From the NCBI GenBank assembly GCA_934096735.1, contig CAKOMS010000001.1:29948-93947 (forward strand): DNA of 64,000 nucleotides. The letters run 5' to 3'. Below the pieces are notes generated by a model. The model saw only the letters and a program-made list of their open reading frames with translations, was not told the origin of the DNA and searched no databases. Source of the stretch: an uncultured Bacilli bacterium. GTDB lineage: Bacteria > Bacillota_I > Bacilli_A > RF39 > UBA660. The position numbers and the translations under genes were made by a program. Positions 962 through 49,705 of this stretch are shown in pieces (within the stretch, counting starts at the first letter, position 1; every line of letters starts with the position of its first letter).

Positions 962-1411
962 ATGAATTATTTTATTAATAGTAGTACTGTAGCGCTTTTA
1001 AAAGATGGAAAGAAAACAATAATATACGATGTTGAAAAGTCAGTAGTTATTAACAAAAGTATTAGAAGTATAATTGAATTTAATTGTAATTATTATGGAC
1101 ACTCGGTAAATGGAACTAAGAAAGCAATTAAGAAATTATTGAATATCAAATACAGAGTTCCAATAGTAGTATCTATAAGTAATAATTATACATTAATACC
1201 GGTAGGAAATATAAGAAATGATATGTGTTTGTTTTTAGTTACAAGTAAAATTATTGATTATGAAAAATGTAATGATTATCTTGAAATAAATTGTGTAAAT
1301 AATAATAAATTTAAAGTAAATTTTTCGATAAATAGTTTTGAAAAATTATTAATTAATTCGATTAGAATAAATAATTTATTAATTAGTAGAAAAAATAATA
1401 ATTATGTTTAA
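962..1411 (+). CDS. ComK-family protein (competence transcription factor-like)
   Basis: 149 aa; alignable by eye to B. subtilis ComK: NSSTVALL~NGATIAVL, IIEFNCNYYGHSVNGTKKA~IVDRSCRFFGSSYAGRKAG, KYRVPIVVSISNNYTLIPV~KPPIMVDPSNQIFLFPT, INSFEKLLINSIRI~ISYNSFENQVYRTAWL; good RBS (agggggag) 5 nt upstream. Confidence 0.55.
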   Translation: MNYFINSSTVALLKDGKKTIIYDVEKSVVINKSIRSIIEFNCNYYGHSVNGTKKAIKKLLNIKYRVPIVVSISNNYTLIPVGNIRNDMCLFLVTSKIIDYEKCNDYLEINCVNNNKFKVNFSINSFEKLLINSIRINNLLISRKNNNYV

Positions 1412-4534: not shown

Positions 4535-6967
4535 ATGCATCATGAGAGAGATAGATTGCAAGAAAATGATATAGTAAATGAAATTGAAACTTCTTTTATT
4601 GAATATTCTATGAGTGTTATAGTATCACGTGCTTTACCAGATCTAAGAGATGGTTTAAAACCTGTTCATAGAAGAATATTATGGAGTATGTATGAGTCTG
4701 GTTATACGCCTGATAAGCCACATAAGAAGTCAGCTCGTATAGTTGGAGATGTTATGGGTAAATATCATCCACACGGCGATTCTAGTATATATGAAGCGAT
4801 GGTAAGAATGGCACAAGACTTTAACTATACTATTCCACTTATTGATGGACATGGTAATTTTGGTAATATAGCTGGTGCTCCAGCTGCTGCTATGAGATAT
4901 ACTGAATCTAGATTATCTAAGATATCATTGGAATTACTTAGAGATATTAACAAAGATACTGTTAATTTTGGACCTAATTTTGATGAATCTGAAAGAGAAC
5001 CTGAGATATTACCATCAAGATTTCCAAATATATTAGTAAATGGAACAATGGGAATTGCTGTTGGTATGGCAACAAATATTCCTCCACATAATTTAGGAGA
5101 AGTTATTGATGGTTGTGTAGCTTATATAGATAATCCAGAGATTGATACTTTAGGATTAATGCAATATATAAAAGGACCAGATTTTCCTACTGGAGGTACT
5201 ATTTTAGGAAATAGTGGTATTAAAAAAGCTTATGAAACTGGTCGAGGTAGTATTACTATAAGAAGTAAGGCTACCATTGAAGAAAAAGATGGAAGGCATT
5301 ATATCATTGTTAATGAGGTTCCTTATGGAGTTAATACCTCAGAACTTAAGACTAAGGTAGCTGAGCTTGTTCACAATAAAGTTATTGATGGAATAGCAGA
5401 TTATCACACTGATTTAAAAAATGGTGTAAAAATAACTATTACTTTAAAGAAAGATGCTAATCCACAAGTTGTTTTAAATAATTTGTATAAACACACTCAA
5501 TTTCAAACAAGTTATAGTATAATACTATTAATGATTGATAATAAAGTTCCTAGAACTTTAGGTTTGAAAGATATTATTTCTAAATACATTAATTATCAAG
5601 AAGAAGTAATTATCAGAAGAACGAAATTTGAACTTGATAAAGCACTTAAAAAGGTACATATTTTAGAAGGTTATAAGATAGCTTTAGATAATATTGATGA
5701 TTTTATAAAAATTATTAAAGAATCTGAAACAGATTTAATTGCAAAGCAACAATTAATTAATAAATATTCTTTAACTGAAATTCAAGCGGATAGTATCTTA
5801 GAATTAAAATTAAGAAGATTAACTGGTCTTGAAAGAAATAAAATTGAAGAAGAATTAAAGGATTTATTACAAAAAATTGAAGAATATAAGGCTATATTAG
5901 CATCTAGAGAAAGAATTTTAAGTATTATTAAAGAGGAATTACTTGAAATTAAAGCAAAATATGATGTAGATAGAAGAACTAATATAGATATGACAGCAAT
6001 AGAATATATTGAAGATGAGTCACTTATTCCTGAAGAGGATGCAATGGTAGTTCTAACAAATAAAGGATATATTAAGAGAACAACTAATGATACTTTTAAG
6101 GTACAAAATAGAGGTGGTGTTGGAGTTAAAGGTGTAACAACAAATGATGAAGATTTTGTTGAACATTTAATTAATTTATCAACTCATGACTATTTGATGT
6201 TCTTTACAAATAAAGGAAAAGTATATCGTTTAAAAGGTTATGAAGTTCCTGAGTTTAGTAGACATTCAAAGGGATTGCCAATAATTAATTTACTTCAAAT
6301 AGATAAAGATGAAAGAATTAATTCAATGGTTAAAGTTACTAAGGAAGAAAAGGCAAAATATTTATTATTTGCGACGAAGAAAGGTATTGTTAAGAAAACC
6401 TTAATACAAGAATTTGACAGTATTAGATCATCTGGAAAAATATGTATTAATCTTTCAGAAAATGATGAGCTTATTGATGTTAAGAAAACATATGGAGATA
6501 GTTTAGTTCTTCTTGGAAATACTAATGGAAGAATGGTTAAATTTAACGAAAATGAAATTAGACCAATGGGAAGAACTGCTACTGGTGTTAAAGGTATTAA
6601 TTTAGACGGTGGCAAATGTATTTGTTGCGAAGTTGTTTCTGAAGAATCAATGATATTACTTGTTACAGAAAAAGGTTATGGAAAAAGGACTAAAGTAAGT
6701 GAATTTAGACAAACAAAACGTGGTAGCAAAGGCGTTCTTGCTTTAAATATTACTAATAAAAATGGTTCTTTAGTTGCTTCTAAAATTGTTGAAGAAGATA
6801 AAAACGCTATTATAATGAGTAATTCTGGTATAACTATTAAATTACCAGTAGATCAAATTTCAATTTTAGGTAGAGTTACTCAAGGTTTAAGATTAATTAA
6901 CCTTAAAGATAATCAGATTGTGGCAACAGTAAGTATTGTTGAAAAAATTGAAAATATTGAAGAATAA
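4535..6967 (+). CDS. gyrA: DNA gyrase subunit A
   Basis: 810 aa; AAMRYTE active-site Tyr motif; C-terminal beta-pinwheel repeats. Confidence 0.97.
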
Positions 6968-6975
6968 TTTTAAAA

Positions 6976-7004
6976 AAATATTTCCCGGGAAATATTTTTT
7001 TTGT
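6976..7004 (+). terminator. Rho-independent terminator of gyrA (stem is the 22-bp palindrome AAATATTTCCCGGGAAATATTT followed by T8); doubles as NBS-like copy a
   Basis: Perfect palindrome immediately after the gyrA stop, followed by tttttttt. Confidence 0.75.
6980..6993. promoter_or_regulatory. Noc-binding-site consensus ATTTCCCGGGAAAT (NBS copy a)
   Basis: Exact 14-bp match to the B. subtilis NBS consensus; 1 of 4 CCCGGG palindromes in a 27% GC window. Confidence 0.55.
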
Positions 7005-7074
7005 GTAATATTGAGTTAAGCTATATATTTTTAATAATTAAAAAAAAATATATATAATTGTAATTGTTAGAATT

Positions 7075-7088
7075 ATTTCCCGGGAAAT
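7075..7088. promoter_or_regulatory. NBS consensus ATTTCCCGGGAAAT (copy b)
   Basis: Exact 14-bp palindrome; extended palindrome TATTTCCCGGGAAATA 7074-7089. Confidence 0.55.
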
Positions 7089-7146
7089 ATTTCCGGTACT
7101 CATAAGGTCCTTAATTTTTAGAATGTTCGTTTTTTGTTCGTGTAAT

Positions 7147-7160
7147 ATTTCCCGGGAAAT
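7147..7160. promoter_or_regulatory. NBS consensus ATTTCCCGGGAAAT (copy c)
   Basis: Exact 14-bp palindrome inside the 20-bp palindrome 7144-7163; flanked by the 8-bp inverted repeat tccggtac(7092-7099)/gtaccgga(7180-7187). Confidence 0.55.
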
Positions 7161-7263
7161 ATTGTCCGATAACTATAATGTACCGGATTAAAAACATAGT
7201 CGAGTTACTAATACATTTAGCTTGTAGTATATTTATCAATATGCTCTATTTTTTAAATTGTTG

Positions 7264-7281
7264 ATGTTTCACGTGAAACAT
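7264..7281. promoter_or_regulatory. parS centromere site (ParB/Spo0J binding), 18-bp palindrome ATGTTTCACGTGAAACAT, copy 1
   Basis: Core TGTTTCACGTGAAACA equals the consensus bacterial parS. Confidence 0.8.
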
Positions 7282-7456
7282 TATGTTGAAAACAATTAAT
7301 TTAGAATTTAATTATTCTACTGCTTTTGCTTTTCAGATTTTAATTGTTGGTTTTTTGTGAAGTTATTGTTATAGAATATACTATTTTTATAAAAAATAAT
7401 TTTTTATATATAATGGTTATTTATAATTTGATTAATTTTTTTTAATATTAGATTTT

Positions 7457-7474
7457 ATGTTTCACGTGAAACAT
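7457..7474. promoter_or_regulatory. parS site copy 2 (perfect)
   Basis: ATGTTTCACGTGAAACAT followed by TGTGTTGATAAC. Confidence 0.8.
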
Positions 7475-7681
7475 TGTGTTGATAACTTTTGAATTGATCT
7501 ATATAACAATTTATTTATATAATATTTTGTTCGTTAATATTTAGCTTATATTTTTGAAACAATATATTTATTATTATATAATATTAAATTAAAAATATAC
7601 ATCAAGTACTTTTTTTATTATTAAATTTACTTATATCATTAATTCAGGTTGATTATTTAGTTTTTTTATAAATTATTTTTA

Positions 7682-7699
7682 ATGTTTCACGTGAAACAT
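7682..7699. promoter_or_regulatory. parS site copy 3 (perfect)
   Basis: ATGTTTCACGTGAAACAT followed by ATGTTGAAAAC. Confidence 0.8.
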
Positions 7700-7795
7700 A
7701 TGTTGAAAACTATTTTATGAATAATAACAAAAATCATATTTTTATTATTATTGTATTTAATTTTAAATTTGTTTTTTATATTTTAATTTACTTCA

Positions 7796-7813
7796 ATGTT
7801 TCACGTGAAACAT
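7796..7813. promoter_or_regulatory. parS site copy 4 (perfect)
   Basis: ATGTTTCACGTGAAACAT followed by TGTTGATAAC. Confidence 0.8.
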
Positions 7814-7955
7814 TGTTGATAACTTTTGAATTGATTTTTAAATTTACTTATTTATTGTTATATATTGTTTTGTTTGTTAACATTTAGCTTTTCTTTTTTA
7901 GTTTTTTTATTTATAATGACCTATTATTATGCATTTTTTATTAAAAATAATTTTA

Positions 7956-7973
7956 ATGTTTCACGTGAAACAT
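7956..7973. promoter_or_regulatory. parS site copy 5 (perfect)
   Basis: ATGTTTCACGTGAAACAT followed by TGTGTTAATAAC. Confidence 0.8.
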
Positions 7974-8059
7974 TGTGTTAATAACTAATTTTTTAAAATT
8001 TTAAATTTTTCATTTCTAAATAAAGGTATTTGTCCGGTGTGTTATTTATTACCGGAAAT

Positions 8060-8073
8060 ATTTCCCGGGAAAT
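8060..8073. promoter_or_regulatory. NBS consensus ATTTCCCGGGAAAT (copy d)
   Basis: Exact 14-bp palindrome; flanked by the inverted repeat tgtccg(8031-8036)/cggaca(8098-8103). Confidence 0.55.
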
Positions 8074-8106
8074 AATTGTCCAGTGTTCTTTAAACAGCGG
8101 ACAGGT

Positions 8107-8124
8107 ATGTTTCACGTGTAACAT
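8107..8124. promoter_or_regulatory. parS site copy 6 (one mismatch: ATGTTTCACGTGtAACAT)
   Basis: Single A->T change breaks the dyad symmetry. Confidence 0.6.
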
Positions 8125-8146
8125 ATATAACTTATATTAAAAACGT

Positions 8147-8175
8147 TTGCTATAGTGTCAAAAATGTGATAATAT
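8147..8175 (+). promoter_or_regulatory. Sigma-A type promoter for the SRP RNA (-35 TTGCTA 8147-8152, 17-nt spacer, extended -10 TGaTAATAT 8167-8175)
   Basis: Hexamer match and spacing; transcript start predicted near 8182. Confidence 0.5.
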
Positions 8176-8181
8176 TTAGAT

Positions 8182-8262
8182 GCACAACAAATATATCGTA
8201 AACTGGTCAGATCAGGAATGAAGCAGCCACATCGGTCACTATTTGTGTGTGCTTTTTATTTT
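8182..8262 (+). ncRNA. ffs: Signal recognition particle RNA (small 4.5S-type SRP RNA, about 80 nt)
   Basis: cuGGUCAGAUCAGGAAUGAAGCAGCCac nearly identical to the conserved SRP RNA domain IV (E. coli GGUCAGGUCCGGAAGGAAGCAGCC) with a GGAA tetraloop; flanks can form a long imperfect hairpin (gcacaacaaatat.../...ctatttgtgtgtgc) ending in a T-run; tadA-scr-dnaX are also neighbours in B. subtilis. Confidence 0.6.
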
Positions 8263-8274
8263 ATGGAGAAATTT

Positions 8275-8688
8275 ATGAATAATTATTTTGAAAATGCTTA
8301 TAAAATGGCTGTTAAGGCCTTTAATCGACGCGAAATTCCAGTTGGGTGTGTTATCACTAAAAACGGTAAAATTATAGCTAAAAGCTTTAATAATAGACAA
8401 AAAAACTATAATATATTGGGTCATGCAGAAATTAATTGCATACTAAAAGCAGAAAAAAAGCTTAAAGATTGGCGTCTTGATGGGTGTTTCATGTATGTAA
8501 CTTTGGAACCATGCGATTTATGTGCAAAGATAATAAAAGAAGCTCGTATTGATCATGTTTTTTTCTTGATTGACAACAAAAAAAGTAAACATTTATTGCA
8601 AAACATAACACAAACAAACGATTGCAATGTAATTAAGAACAAATATTTGTGTGTTTTTAATGATTTTTTTAAAAATTTACGTCATTAA
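8275..8688 (+). CDS. tadA: tRNA-specific adenosine(34) deaminase TadA
   Basis: CMP/dCMP deaminase zinc motifs HAE...PCDLC; the ORF track start 8218 translates through the SRP RNA, so the true start is probably ATG 8275 (RBS ggag 8265-8268) or 8263. Confidence 0.8.
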   Translation: MNNYFENAYKMAVKAFNRREIPVGCVITKNGKIIAKSFNNRQKNYNILGHAEINCILKAEKKLKDWRLDGCFMYVTLEPCDLCAKIIKEARIDHVFFLIDNKKSKHLLQNITQTNDCNVIKNKYLCVFNDFFKNLRH

Positions 8689-8739: not shown

Positions 8740-10341
8740 ATGAGTTATAAAGTACTTTATAGAAAATATAGACCTGATAATTTTGATAACATTATTGGTC
8801 AATATTACACAATTAAAACTTTAAAAAATTCAATTATAAATAACAAAGTTTCTCATGCGTACATTTTTTCTGGTCCAAGAGGAACTGGAAAAACATCAAC
8901 TGCAAAAGTATTTGCGAAGGCTTTAAATTGTGAGTCGCCTATAGATGGTTCACCATGTAATAATTGTTCATTTTGTAACAATTTTTTAGAAAATCCAGAT
9001 ATTATAGAAATTGATGCTGCTTCAAATAATGGTGTTGATCAGATTAGAAATTTAATCGATAACATTAAATTATCACCAAGTAATGGTAAGTATAAAGTTT
9101 ATATTATTGATGAAGTTCATATGTTAACTACCAGTGCATTTAATGCCTTACTTTTAACATTAGAAGAACCTCCAAAGCATGCTATTTTTATTTTAGCAAC
9201 TACAAATATAGAAAATGTTCCTGTTACTATTTTATCTAGATGCCAAAGATTTGATTTTCAAAAAATTAGTAATAAAGATATTTCGGCATCTTTAAGAAAA
9301 ATTTGTGATTTAGAAAATATTGTAGCTGATGATGAAGCACTTGATGAAATTGCCTATCTATCTGAGGGTGGTATGAGGGACTCACTTAGCATATTAGATC
9401 AATTATCTAAGTTAGAAGAAAAAATTACTTTAGATCTAATTGAAAAAGAAATTAAAACAATTTCTAAAAAAAATATAGATGATGTATTTAATGCAATTGA
9501 AAGTAATGATTTAGATGGTTTTGTTAATTTATTAAGAGAATATAGTAATAGAAACGTTGACTATAAAATGTTTGTTAAAAAGATGATTGATGTTGGTAGT
9601 AAAAGAGCGTTAAGTTTAAAAAGTAATCCTAGTAAATATGTACTTAATTCAGATAATTATAAAAAAATGGTATTACTTTTAATTGATTCTTTAAATAAAA
9701 TTAATATCAATGTGAATCCATTCGTAACTTTGGAAATGCTTTTATTAGATTTTTTTAGTACAGAAAATTTTGATGTTAATAACGAAAAAATTATAAAGAA
9801 AGATTATAAAATTGAATTAAGTAATGAAGTAAAGAAAAATTCTAATTCTATAAGTGAATTAAAAAACGATATGACAAGTAAAAATAATTCCATTGAGGCT
9901 GGTAACAATTTTGTAAATATTAGAATCAATAATTGTTTTGTGAGTGCTTCTAAAGAATCATTAGAAAAAGCTAAAGAATTATTAAATAATTTAAAAAATG
10001 ATTTAAATATTACTGGTAAAGTAAAATCTATTATTGAAGATGCTCAAGTAGTAGTTGCTTCTGAAAAAATTGTTGTTTTATCGATGTTAAGTGATCATCT
10101 TGCTGAAGATGCAAACGAAAACATATTAGCAATTGAAAAAGCTTTTAATTCAATTATTAATGAAGATTCAAAAATTAAGTTAGTATTTATTTCTGAAAAT
10201 AAATGGATTATAGAAAAGAATAAATATATAGGAAATTTGAAAAAGGGTTATGTTTATAAGGAAATATGTGAAAATGAAGATAATCAAATGCAAGAAAAAT
10301 TAACAGATGTATTTGATTTATCAAAAATTGAAATAATTTAA
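8740..10341 (+). CDS. dnaX: DNA polymerase III subunits gamma/tau
   Basis: AAA+ clamp-loader motifs GPRGTGKTS, DEVHML, SRC. Confidence 0.93.
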   Translation: MSYKVLYRKYRPDNFDNIIGQYYTIKTLKNSIINNKVSHAYIFSGPRGTGKTSTAKVFAKALNCESPIDGSPCNNCSFCNNFLENPDIIEIDAASNNGVDQIRNLIDNIKLSPSNGKYKVYIIDEVHMLTTSAFNALLLTLEEPPKHAIFILATTNIENVPVTILSRCQRFDFQKISNKDISASLRKICDLENIVADDEALDEIAYLSEGGMRDSLSILDQLSKLEEKITLDLIEKEIKTISKKNIDDVFNAIESNDLDGFVNLLREYSNRNVDYKMFVKKMIDVGSKRALSLKSNPSKYVLNSDNYKKMVLLLIDSLNKININVNPFVTLEMLLLDFFSTENFDVNNEKIIKKDYKIELSNEVKKNSNSISELKNDMTSKNNSIEAGNNFVNIRINNCFVSASKESLEKAKELLNNLKNDLNITGKVKSIIEDAQVVVASEKIVVLSMLSDHLAEDANENILAIEKAFNSIINEDSKIKLVFISENKWIIEKNKYIGNLKKGYVYKEICENEDNQMQEKLTDVFDLSKIEII

Positions 10342-18099: not shown

Positions 18100-18308
18100 T
18101 ATACTTGTAGTTAACGAAGAATAAGTGTGGTAGATTAATAAGTTAAATAGAGAATTAGTGGTTGGTGGAAACTAATTAATAAGTTAATTGAGTATGAACT
18201 TAGGAGTTAAATCGGTGAGAATCGTTATAATCTAAAGTGTATGAATAAATTCATAAATTAAGGTGGTACCGCGGAAAATATTTCGTCCTTTGTTTATGAA
18301 TTTTTTAT
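18100..18308 (+). promoter_or_regulatory. T-box riboswitch leader, methionine-specific (specifier AUG-A at 18194-18197), with terminator/antiterminator
   Basis: Conserved T-box sequence AATTAAGGTGGTACCGCGG at 18256-18274; Stem I features AGAGA and distal loop GGTGGAAA; terminator helix aaattcataaat(18247-18258)/atttatgaattt(18292-18303) plus T-run; metG is downstream. Confidence 0.75.
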
Positions 18309-18320
18309 TTGGAGGTTTTT

Positions 18321-48042: not shown

Positions 48043-48828
48043 ATGGCAAAAGTTATTTCATTAGTAAATCAAAAGGGTGGAGTTGGAAAGACTACAACAA
48101 GTATAAATTTAGCTGCTGCGTTAGGAAAAGAAAATAAAAGAGTTTTAATTATAGATTTAGATCCTCAAAGTAATGCAACAACTGGGCTTGGATTAAATTC
48201 AAATGATTTTAATCATGATATTTATGAAGTAGTTACTGGAGCTTGTGATATAGAACAAGCTATAAAAAAAACTAAATTTCAGAATTTAGCAATTATTCCT
48301 TCAACTTTAAATTTAGCAGGTGTAGATGTTGAATTTGTAAAAAGAATGTTAGAGGATAAAGATTTTAGACAAAATGATCAATTAAAGAATGCGATTAATA
48401 GAATTAGAGATGCATTTGATTATATTATTATTGATTGTCAACCTTCACTTGGACTTGGTACAATGAATGCATTAGTTGCAAGTGATTCGGTTATTATTCC
48501 TGTTCAATGTGAATTTTTTGCACTTGAAGGAATTACACAATTATTAAATTCAATTATAATGGTTCAATCTAGTATGAATCCTACTTTAAGAATTGAGGGT
48601 GTTTTACTTACTATGTTAGATGGTAGAACTAATATTGGACTTGAAGTAATTGAGGAAATTAGAAAATATTTTAAAGATAAAGTTTTTAATACAATTATCC
48701 CAAGACTTGTAAGACTTGTTGAAGCACCATCACATGGTAAACCAATTAATGAGTATGATCCTACTAGTCGTGCTACTGAAGCGTATCACAATTTAGCAAA
48801 GGAAGTGATTGAGAGAAATGGAAACTAA
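48043..48828 (+). CDS. parA: Chromosome partitioning ATPase ParA/Soj
   Basis: Deviant Walker A KGGVGKTT; 261 aa. Confidence 0.93.
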   Translation: MAKVISLVNQKGGVGKTTTSINLAAALGKENKRVLIIDLDPQSNATTGLGLNSNDFNHDIYEVVTGACDIEQAIKKTKFQNLAIIPSTLNLAGVDVEFVKRMLEDKDFRQNDQLKNAINRIRDAFDYIIIDCQPSLGLGTMNALVASDSVIIPVQCEFFALEGITQLLNSIIMVQSSMNPTLRIEGVLLTMLDGRTNIGLEVIEEIRKYFKDKVFNTIIPRLVRLVEAPSHGKPINEYDPTSRATEAYHNLAKEVIERNGN

Positions 48829-49705
48829 AAAGAAGGCTTTAGGTAAAGGATTAGAGCAATTATTTGCTAATAATGTTATTGATTTCGATAATTTTGAAAA
48901 AGAGATAGTAACTGAAGCAAAAAAAGATAATGGAATTGCTATGATTAGAATAGCTGATATTAGAAGTAATCCATATCAACCAAGAAAATCATTTAATGAA
49001 GATACTTTGAATGAACTTGCACAATCTATAAAAGAGTATGGACTTGTACAACCTATTATTGTTAAAAAGAGTATTAAAGGTTATGAGTTAGTAGCTGGCG
49101 AAAGAAGATGTAAAGCGTCTAGAATTGCCGGACTTACTGAAATACCTGCTATAATTAAAGATTTCACTGATGATGAAATGATGGAACTTGCTCTTATTGA
49201 AAATATACAAAGAGAAGATTTAAATTCTATTGATGAAGCTAAAAGTGTAATGAATATTATTAAACTTAAAGGTTATACTCAAGAAGAGTTTGCATTAAAA
49301 TTTGGTAAAAGTAGAACTTATGTTACTAATTTATTAGGTCTTTTAAATTTACCTAATGATGTACAGGAATTAGTTATTTTAAAAAAGATTAGTCCATCTC
49401 ATGCTAGATTGTTAAGTAAACTTGATGATCCTTTAGAAATTAATAGACTTGCTAATCGTATTATGTTAGAAAAACTAAATGTAAGAGATTTAGAAGATAT
49501 TGTTAATAATGTAGAGGTTGTTAAAAGAAAACCATTAGCTTATACTCATACTGATCCCAAATATCGTATTTATGAAAATGTAATTAGTGATAAAGTTGGT
49601 AATAAAGTTAAAGTTAAGAAAAATAAAATTGAAATTTCTTTTGATTCATTAAAAGATTTAGAAAGAATTATGGATATTTTGAATATATCTATTGGAGAAG
49701 ATTAA
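48809..49705 (+). CDS. parB: Chromosome partitioning protein ParB/Spo0J (CTPase, parS-binding)
   Basis: ParB box GERRCKAS, HTH GKSRTYVTNLL; overlaps parA by 20 nt. Confidence 0.93.
   Translation: MREMETKKKALGKGLEQLFANNVIDFDNFEKEIVTEAKKDNGIAMIRIADIRSNPYQPRKSFNEDTLNELAQSIKEYGLVQPIIVKKSIKGYELVAGERRCKASRIAGLTEIPAIIKDFTDDEMMELALIENIQREDLNSIDEAKSVMNIIKLKGYTQEEFALKFGKSRTYVTNLLGLLNLPNDVQELVILKKISPSHARLLSKLDDPLEINRLANRIMLEKLNVRDLEDIVNNVEVVKRKPLAYTHTDPKYRIYENVISDKVGNKVKVKKNKIEISFDSLKDLERIMDILNISIGED

Follow-up and report, generated by a model that had tools for sequence, protein, structure and literature searches.

A 64,000 nucleotide stretch of contig CAKOMS010000001.1 (assembly GCA_934096735.1, positions 29,948 to 93,947), from an uncultured Bacilli bacterium, was analysed and is referred to as the window. 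The analysis concerned a non-coding island in this window that carries two kinds of palindromic site, one identical to parS and the other to the Noc-binding site (NBS). The island is bounded on the left by gyrA (4535-6967, + strand) and on the right by a small signal recognition particle (SRP) RNA gene located with Rfam (8174-8264, + strand), which is followed by tadA (8275-8688) and dnaX (8740-10341). It extends from the gyrA stop codon to the SRP RNA gene (6968-8173, 1,206 bp) and contains every parS and NBS copy of the window. A preliminary description of the window had placed repeats in a gene-free stretch downstream of gyrA, and the stretch is indeed gene-free. The only open reading frames between gyrA and the SRP RNA gene encode 42, 56 and 43 amino acids, a search of Rfam at a permissive threshold found the SRP RNA alone and no match in the island interior, and promoter and terminator scans of the island gave nothing exceeding chance.

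Five perfect copies of the 18 bp palindrome ATGTTTCACGTGAAACAT were located at 7264-7281 (parS1), 7457-7474 (parS2), 7682-7699 (parS3), 7796-7813 (parS4) and 7956-7973 (parS5). A sixth copy at 8107-8124 (parS6), ∼50 nt upstream of the SRP RNA gene, differs by one mismatch (ATGTTTCACGTGTAACAT). The preliminary description had given the same six sites, correct in every detail. No match to ATGTTTCACGTGAAACAT was obtained in any of 100 dinucleotide-preserving shuffles, and a search of the whole 64 kb window with the parS 16-mer core, allowing up to 3 mismatches, returned no match besides the six island sites. The repeats match the 16 bp palindrome TGTTNCACGTGAAACA, which is also the parS sequence of PMC7383237; this agreement bears out their earlier assignment as consensus parS. 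Start-to-start spacing of the six sites is irregular (193, 225, 114, 160 and 151 bp) and no tandem period matching it was detected in the island using Tandem Repeats Finder (TRF). The 18 bp cores of the five perfect sites are 100% identical; their flanks are 44-53% identical, compared with 39% among 30-mers drawn at random from the island.

The second palindrome, the 16 bp TATTTCCCGGGAAATA, is present in four perfect copies where 0.27 were expected, and a search of the 64 kb window allowing up to 3 mismatches returned no match beyond these four. Three copies lie between gyrA and parS1, at 6979-6994 (NBS1), 7074-7089 (NBS2) and 7146-7161 (NBS3), and one lies between parS5 and parS6, at 8059-8074 (NBS4), 33 nt before the latter. 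TATTTCCCGGGAAATA differs from parS at two positions per half-site and is identical to the NBS of Jalal et al. 2020 (PMC7383237). In that study parS and NBS, with two differences per half-site, were told apart with “exquisite specificity”. NBS2 and NBS4 lie within a 28 nt perfect inverted repeat (7071-7098 and 8050-8077), composed of the NBS plus TTTCCGGTA, which brackets parS1-5. NBS1 begins 12 nt past the gyrA stop codon in an A7-NBS-T8 context. Its hairpin has a 13 bp stem and is weak on the basis of its folding energy (−8.5 kcal/mol, z = −1.6); NBS1 may double as a weak gyrA terminator. Other CCGG-containing motifs (GTCCG...TACCGGA) were observed around NBS2-4.

The window has ∼25% GC and a GC skew that is positive along its full length. 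Proteins identical to its own are encoded on metagenome contigs from human gut, one of them a Hadza contig of 113 kb, and ∼73 kb of sequence of this species was examined in total. Gene order on the contig is noc-like, rsmG, mnmG, mnmE, jag, yidC, rnpA and rpmH, followed by dnaA, dnaN, a comK-like gene, recF, gyrB and gyrA, and to the right of gyrA by the island, the SRP RNA gene, tadA, dnaX, ybaB and recR. The GC-skew minimum lies at the junction of rpmH and dnaA, and the replication origin (oriC) was placed there for this reason. Measured from the dnaA start, the island begins ∼8.7 kb to the right, and its distance from oriC is ∼9 kb. The parA-parB genes lie on the right replichore directly after the ribosomal protein/rpoA/rplQ cluster, 40 kb from the island, and so are not in their usual place; the noc-like and rsmG genes remain left of oriC, apart from parA-parB.

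parA (48043-48828, + strand) encodes a Soj-type protein with the deviant Walker A motif KGGVGKT. parB (48809-49705, + strand) encodes a protein with an N-terminal LGKGL motif and a GERR box, and is the likely reader of parS. Alignment gave R173, L179, N184 and S201 as the specificity residues of this ParB in the Caulobacter numbering of Jalal et al. The parS-specific pattern in their work is R-x-x-G/S/T/C, R173 being combined with a small residue at 201 (PMC7383237). The best solved relative of the window ParB is Spo0J of Bacillus subtilis, at 180 bits versus 149 for Noc, and the protein scored 224 bits against the NCBIfam Noc model TIGR04285. Proximity to the origin, a parS-type ParB with a CTP-binding (GERR; CTP, cytidine triphosphate) box and a ParA partner are all present, and it is very likely, judging from these residues and sites, that parS loads the Spo0J-type ParB here.

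The preliminary description had set the island against a single parAB operon. The operon is real at 48043-49705, and no second ParB-family gene was found in the window or in locus L001. It is not the only ParB-family locus that matters, however, because the island contains NBS and a Noc-type paralogue is encoded just outside the window. The gene for this paralogue (L048:1-664, − strand) lies beside rsmG, ∼8.4 kb left of window position 1. Its product has 329 amino acids, and the own-species protein was read as the N-terminal 221 of these, which begin MNTESQILNVPIEDIIPNRFQPR. Homologue P0005 was considered as the own-species protein and rejected, as it comes from another species.

The Noc-like protein has Q173, K179, S184 and R201 compared with QKKR in Noc, so that three of the four residues match. 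It carries the Noc hallmark PNRFQPR and the GERR motif, its best solved relatives are Noc structures (194 bits versus 172-176 for ParB), and it is 44% identical to the window ParB. Among the 120 homologues listed, all have Q-K-(S/T/A)-R, and the best match to the own-species protein is 86% identical. The relatives have a linker that is long and acidic and contains the conserved motif IPNKFFN[YF]LEDE (111 of the 120 homologues listed), possibly a membrane-binding or partner-binding peptide that has been relocated. The gene was found left of oriC in 24 of the related loci described below. Taken together with the sequence of the sites, these features make it quite likely that NBS loads the Noc-like protein in this species.

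In four of the related loci, which belong to one subclade (L026, L027, L030 and L033), the Noc-like gene is of 490-550 amino acids, on the + strand at ∼7.3-8.1 kb, and is situated ∼2 kb upstream of dnaA and not beside rsmG.

The residues of the two proteins bear on a different explanation, in which one dual-specific reader, the window ParB, loads at both parS and NBS and the Noc-like paralogue acts elsewhere. Dual-specificity variants in the screen of Jalal et al. mostly had T or S at position 201 (PMC7383237), and the window ParB has S201. In the same screen ∼91% of NBS-specific variants had K or R at 179 or 184, and the window ParB has neither at either position, whereas a paralogue with Noc residues is present. 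In the accessible part of the Jalal et al. supplements the RLNS variant was not found, and QKSR and QKQR likewise. The sites themselves were considered across 1.43 Mb of loci, where hybrid sites are rare, numbering 8 against 370 perfect parS and 362 perfect NBS. Their near-absence suggests that two sharply distinct specificities are maintained, and a sharp division between parS and NBS with few hybrids is easier to reconcile with two specific readers than with a single tolerant one. Loading of both sites by the window ParB alone is considered quite unlikely, and separate readers for parS and NBS are preferred.

Variation within the species was assessed from five further places with the same proteins, which yielded four distinct island versions. 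The number of parS sites per strain is 4+1, 5+1 or 6+1, the number of NBS is constant at 3+1, and the single-mismatch parS6 is identical in all four strains. Differences in island length correspond to whole parS-containing units, such as that of parS4, which is missing in strain L049, and in the alignment the indel junctions fall at parS cores. The parS array would thus grow and shrink via recombination between parS cores. None of the 154 alignment columns within parS and NBS cores is variable across the four strains, compared with 87 of the 1,019 other ungapped columns. This pattern indicates that the parS and NBS cores are under purifying selection.

Related loci were collected with a DnaA-based scan, taking one genome per species. 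41 loci were obtained, 37 of them Bacilli-type at 52-77% DnaA identity and 4 distant at 34-36%. The Bacilli-type loci are labelled as uncultured Bacilli, Bacillota, Mycoplasma, Erysipelotrichaceae and Muribaculaceae, and are from rabbit, goat, mouse and human gut. The arrangement gyrA-island-dnaX is kept in every locus covering the region. Islands were counted in 28 loci, comprising 27 related species and a second strain of this species. The comparison of the gyrA downstream region in relatives, as proposed in the preliminary description, revealed parS arrays at the same locus in the 27 related species, most of the arrays having NBS among the parS sites. Over the 28 loci, 103 parS-like sites were located in the gyrA-dnaX islands (37 kb) and 0 in the other 551 kb; for NBS the numbers were 57 and 15. 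NBS are interleaved with parS in species whose DnaA is at least 67% identical. The parS consensus across species is the 18-mer A-TGTTTCACGTGAAACA-T, and the flanks are unrelated between species.

Metagenome contigs were scanned for NBS lying 10-40 nt from parS. At least 120 stretches with NBS near parS were obtained, all of low GC (0.19-0.38), and 115 of the matches listed have a gyrA or dnaX homologue beside them. The same pattern gave no match in viral contigs, and comparison of the island with plasmid records gave no similarity.

Some individual loci have additional features. A single perfect NBS is present inside dnaX at ∼20.5-21.0 kb, at a similar position each time, in L026, L027, L029, L030, L032, L033 and L034, which are among the more distant relatives. 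NBS is followed by ATTGGTTTACATAATAT in the islands of L004, L005, L010, L014-L018 and L035, and at L018:18873 ATTGGTTTACATAATAT extends the NBS to a 50 bp perfect palindrome. Outside the islands ATTGGTTTACATAATAT was found solely as a coincidental match in the yidC coding sequence.

These counts also bear on a simpler explanation, namely that the island is a ParB-only centromere array whose CCCGGG palindromes are incidental, either as terminators or as relics. The evidence for parS is strong, islands with parS alone occur in distant relatives, and NBS1 directly follows the gyrA stop codon in an A7-hairpin-T8 context, all of which would suit such an array. The terminator-like context holds for NBS1 alone, however, and its hairpin is weak. 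Incidental palindromes are also at odds with an excess of perfect 16-mers over expectation that are identical to the published NBS, with their invariance across strains, and with their repeated presence in this island, seen both in the majority of near relatives and on at least 120 metagenome contigs. The genome moreover encodes a Noc-type paralogue with Q-K-x-R, and hybrid sites are almost absent. A ParB-only array is on this evidence unlikely. The earlier designation of the island as a parS centromere array is retained as the best reading of its parS part, based on the consensus parS sequence, the distance of ∼9 kb from oriC, the presence of ParA and ParB, purifying selection and the shared locus; the island is not parS-only, the four NBS having been overlooked.

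An interspersed repeat, a remnant of a mobile element resembling a miniature inverted-repeat transposable element (MITE), or an integrated plasmid centromere was considered as a further explanation. The 28 nt perfect inverted repeat bracketing parS1-5, the differences in parS copy number between strains and the partial similarity of the flanks of the repeat units are of the kind that such an origin would leave. The inverted repeat, however, is mostly the NBS palindrome itself plus 6 nt, and there is neither a transposase gene nor a regular tandem period. A generic interspersed repeat had been named in the preliminary description as the finding that would speak against a centromere; outside the island the window holds no copies, and the 551 kb surrounding related islands are free of parS. 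Over 140 genomes and contigs have the island at one and the same syntenic position, and no plasmid or viral contig matches it. The likeness to a plasmid-type array that had been proposed earlier proved superficial in view of the irregular spacing (114-225 bp), the diverged spacers, the lack of plasmid or viral similarity and the single syntenic position. An origin from a repeat, a mobile element or a plasmid is considered extremely unlikely, and a chromosomal element with separate parS and NBS components is favored.

A further motif adjoins the parS sites. The DnaA-box-like decamer TGTTGAAAAC lies at 7284-7293 (+ strand), 2 nt after parS1, and similar decamers follow parS2-5 at 7477-7486, 7701-7710, 7814-7823 and 7976-7985. 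The common form TGTTRAWAAC trails each of parS1-5 by 1-3 nt and a single mismatch separates it from the reverse complement of the DnaA box (TGTGGATAA). The window contains 9 copies versus 2.1 expected, and the two oriC intergenic regions (∼0.6 kb; L048 positions 6981, 7046, 7181 and 8714) a further 4. No perfect TTATCCACA box was found in the 20 kb around oriC of this species. Canonical DnaA boxes with up to one mismatch, counted in 27 species, have a density of 0.79/kb in the islands, compared with 0.63 in the background and 6.55 at oriC, and so are not enriched in the islands.

The decamer raised the question of whether the island is mainly a DnaA-box cluster for DnaA titration or replication control, comparable with the clusters of B. 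subtilis or with datA of Escherichia coli, and only accompanied by parS. The near-match to the DnaA box, its position beside parS1-5 and its enrichment in the window and at oriC are in keeping with this, as are the DnaA-box-like motifs near parS in L023, L024, L036 and L039. In B. subtilis, DnaA-box clusters and Spo0J jointly act on replication initiation (PMC3245932). The motif was, however, defined only after the island had been seen, the five copies are not independent since duplicated units gave rise to them, the islands of the 27 species show no enrichment of canonical boxes, and boxes near parS are missing from many species. As a parallel, a cluster of DnaA boxes lying downstream of gyrA in B. 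subtilis was considered and dropped, as Okumura et al. list six other loci. A link of DnaA to the island is possible but unproven, because the motif is post hoc, its copies are duplicated and canonical boxes are not enriched across the clade. As the main function of the island, a DnaA-box cluster is very improbable.

The island is probably the centromere region of the chromosome and a compound zone for the loading of ParB and the Noc-like protein, two paralogous CTP-dependent clamps. This assignment is drawn from the sites and from the predicted proteins, and builds on the known loading and spreading of ParB and Noc clamps and on parS marking the region segregated first. ParB and Noc are CTP-dependent clamps that each load at their own site and then spread to neighboring DNA (PMC7383237, PMC8429893), and parS marks the region of the chromosome that is segregated first (PMC5815017). 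In the proposed mechanism the six parS sites would load the Spo0J-type ParB encoded at 48.8 kb, which would slide onto the flanking origin-proximal DNA. Segregation of the origin region would then be carried out by ParB and ParA, joined by SMC if other bacteria are a guide. The four NBS would load the Noc-type paralogue, whose gene is by rsmG ∼15 kb to the left, across oriC. Both nucleoprotein complexes would be seeded on the same 1.2 kb, ∼9 kb from oriC. As a guess, the action of the Noc-like protein, whether exclusion of the division site or tethering, would be tied to the position of the centromere and not to the bulk nucleoid. Such an output would fit the joint block of premature Z rings by Spo0J and Noc, which is described for B. 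subtilis (PMC6852036). What we infer from these data is that the two proteins bind the sites and spread, and that segregation is coupled to the function of Noc.

Several points weigh against a compound loading zone of this kind. Position 184 of the Noc-like protein is S, not K; in the screen of Jalal et al. a single K or R at 179 or 184 sufficed (PMC7383237). The 221 residue fragment scored 275 bits against NCBIfam TIGR04285, for which the cut-off is 315. Two full-length relatives scored 276-277 bits against the same cut-off, with Noc still the top-scoring family. The Noc-like protein does not have the N-terminal amphipathic helix, only ∼8 residues preceding the conserved N-terminal domain, and in the alignment its N-terminus is 21 residues shorter than that of Geobacillus Noc. 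In B. subtilis Noc this helix is needed for membrane binding and nucleoid occlusion (PMC8429893). As the membrane helix is missing, the output is possibly not classical nucleoid occlusion, and the cellular role of the Noc-like protein may differ from that of Noc. The NBS component is not universal, the islands of distant relatives (L023-L039) being mostly parS-only. The window ParB may also bind NBS, which is conceivable given that S201 is common in laboratory dual-specificity variants. Finally, further parS loci may be situated beyond the ∼73 kb of this species that were examined.

A more specific version of the proposal was formulated around the missing helix. It holds that the paralogue is a Noc-derived clamp that has shed its N-terminal membrane helix and acquired a conserved linker motif, and that it is loaded beside ParB, such that the centromere and not the bulk nucleoid carries its signal, for example to block division or to tether until the origins have separated. 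This version is put forward tentatively and is rather less probable than not. If true, it would represent a centromere-coupled variant of nucleoid occlusion and an instance in nature of a single loading zone used by two paralogous CTP clamps.

Other features of the sequences were recorded in passing. A ComK-family gene of 149 amino acids lies at 962-1411 (+ strand) between dnaN and recF and has the same position in nearer relatives; tblastn detects it in only part of the wider metagenome set. A T-box leader was located at 18108-18293 (+ strand; Rfam RF00230, 103 bits) upstream of an open reading frame at 18309. A SpoIIR-family gene is present at L044:15960-16469, near oriC of a related small low-GC genome, which hints that the lineage retains some sporulation genes.

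Clustered chromosomal parS, as in Caulobacter and others, and NBS and Noc are already known. ParB and Noc are standard paralogous CTP-dependent DNA clamps, and the distributions of their sites differ in model organisms. In the literature searched there was no report of interleaved parS and NBS, nor of a tight non-coding parS array in Firmicutes, of a fixed position between gyrA and the SRP RNA gene or dnaX, or of an accompanying helix-less Noc subfamily. The locus is of interest as both types of site occur side by side, repeatedly and under selection, at one conserved locus of a large uncultured gut lineage. It offers a natural system in which to ask how two sliding clamps share DNA without cross-loading, and a lead on the function of Noc-like proteins that have no membrane helix. 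The combination of parS and NBS between gyrA and dnaX would provide a simple sequence marker for the centromere of these reduced genomes, and the gain and loss of parS units between strains would represent a bacterial centromere changing size in real populations.

The system closest to the parS part of the island is Spo0J/parS of B. subtilis, with which it shares an identical parS consensus, the same type of ParB, a Soj-type ParA and origin-proximal sites. In B. subtilis the parS sites are dispersed across hundreds of kb and most of them lie within genes. Here, in contrast, a non-coding segment of <1 kb carries 5-7 identical sites, with differences in number from strain to strain, and parAB has moved to a place after rplQ, 40 kb away. 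In Caulobacter crescentus, Corynebacterium glutamicum and Myxococcus xanthus, as here, parS sites lie close together near the origin and form one ParB nucleation zone. In these three species the clusters extend over several to tens of kb, and genes lie within them. The present array differs in being tight and non-coding, in belonging to a Firmicute lineage and in having a Noc-site component, the last of which has not been reported for those clusters. Tran et al. argue that a new parS is best tolerated next to an existing cluster (PMC5815017).

The island differs from plasmid F sopC and P1 parS in having no fixed period, no plasmid similarity, the chromosomal parS consensus and a chromosomal, vertically conserved locus. 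It is like them in presenting multiple identical palindromes in non-coding DNA. RacA of B. subtilis has ram sites concentrated near the origin and could tie that region to a cell structure. The parallel with RacA/ram is one of functional analogy only, as its protein family and site sequence are unrelated to the Noc-like protein and NBS, and tethering here is hypothetical. The Noc systems of B. subtilis and Staphylococcus aureus share with this species an identical 16 bp NBS and a paralogue with Q173, K179 and R201, the PNRFQPR and GERR motifs and a gene beside rsmG. Described NBS are spread around the chromosome except near the terminus (PMC7383237, PMC8429893), whereas here four are packed into the centromere island.

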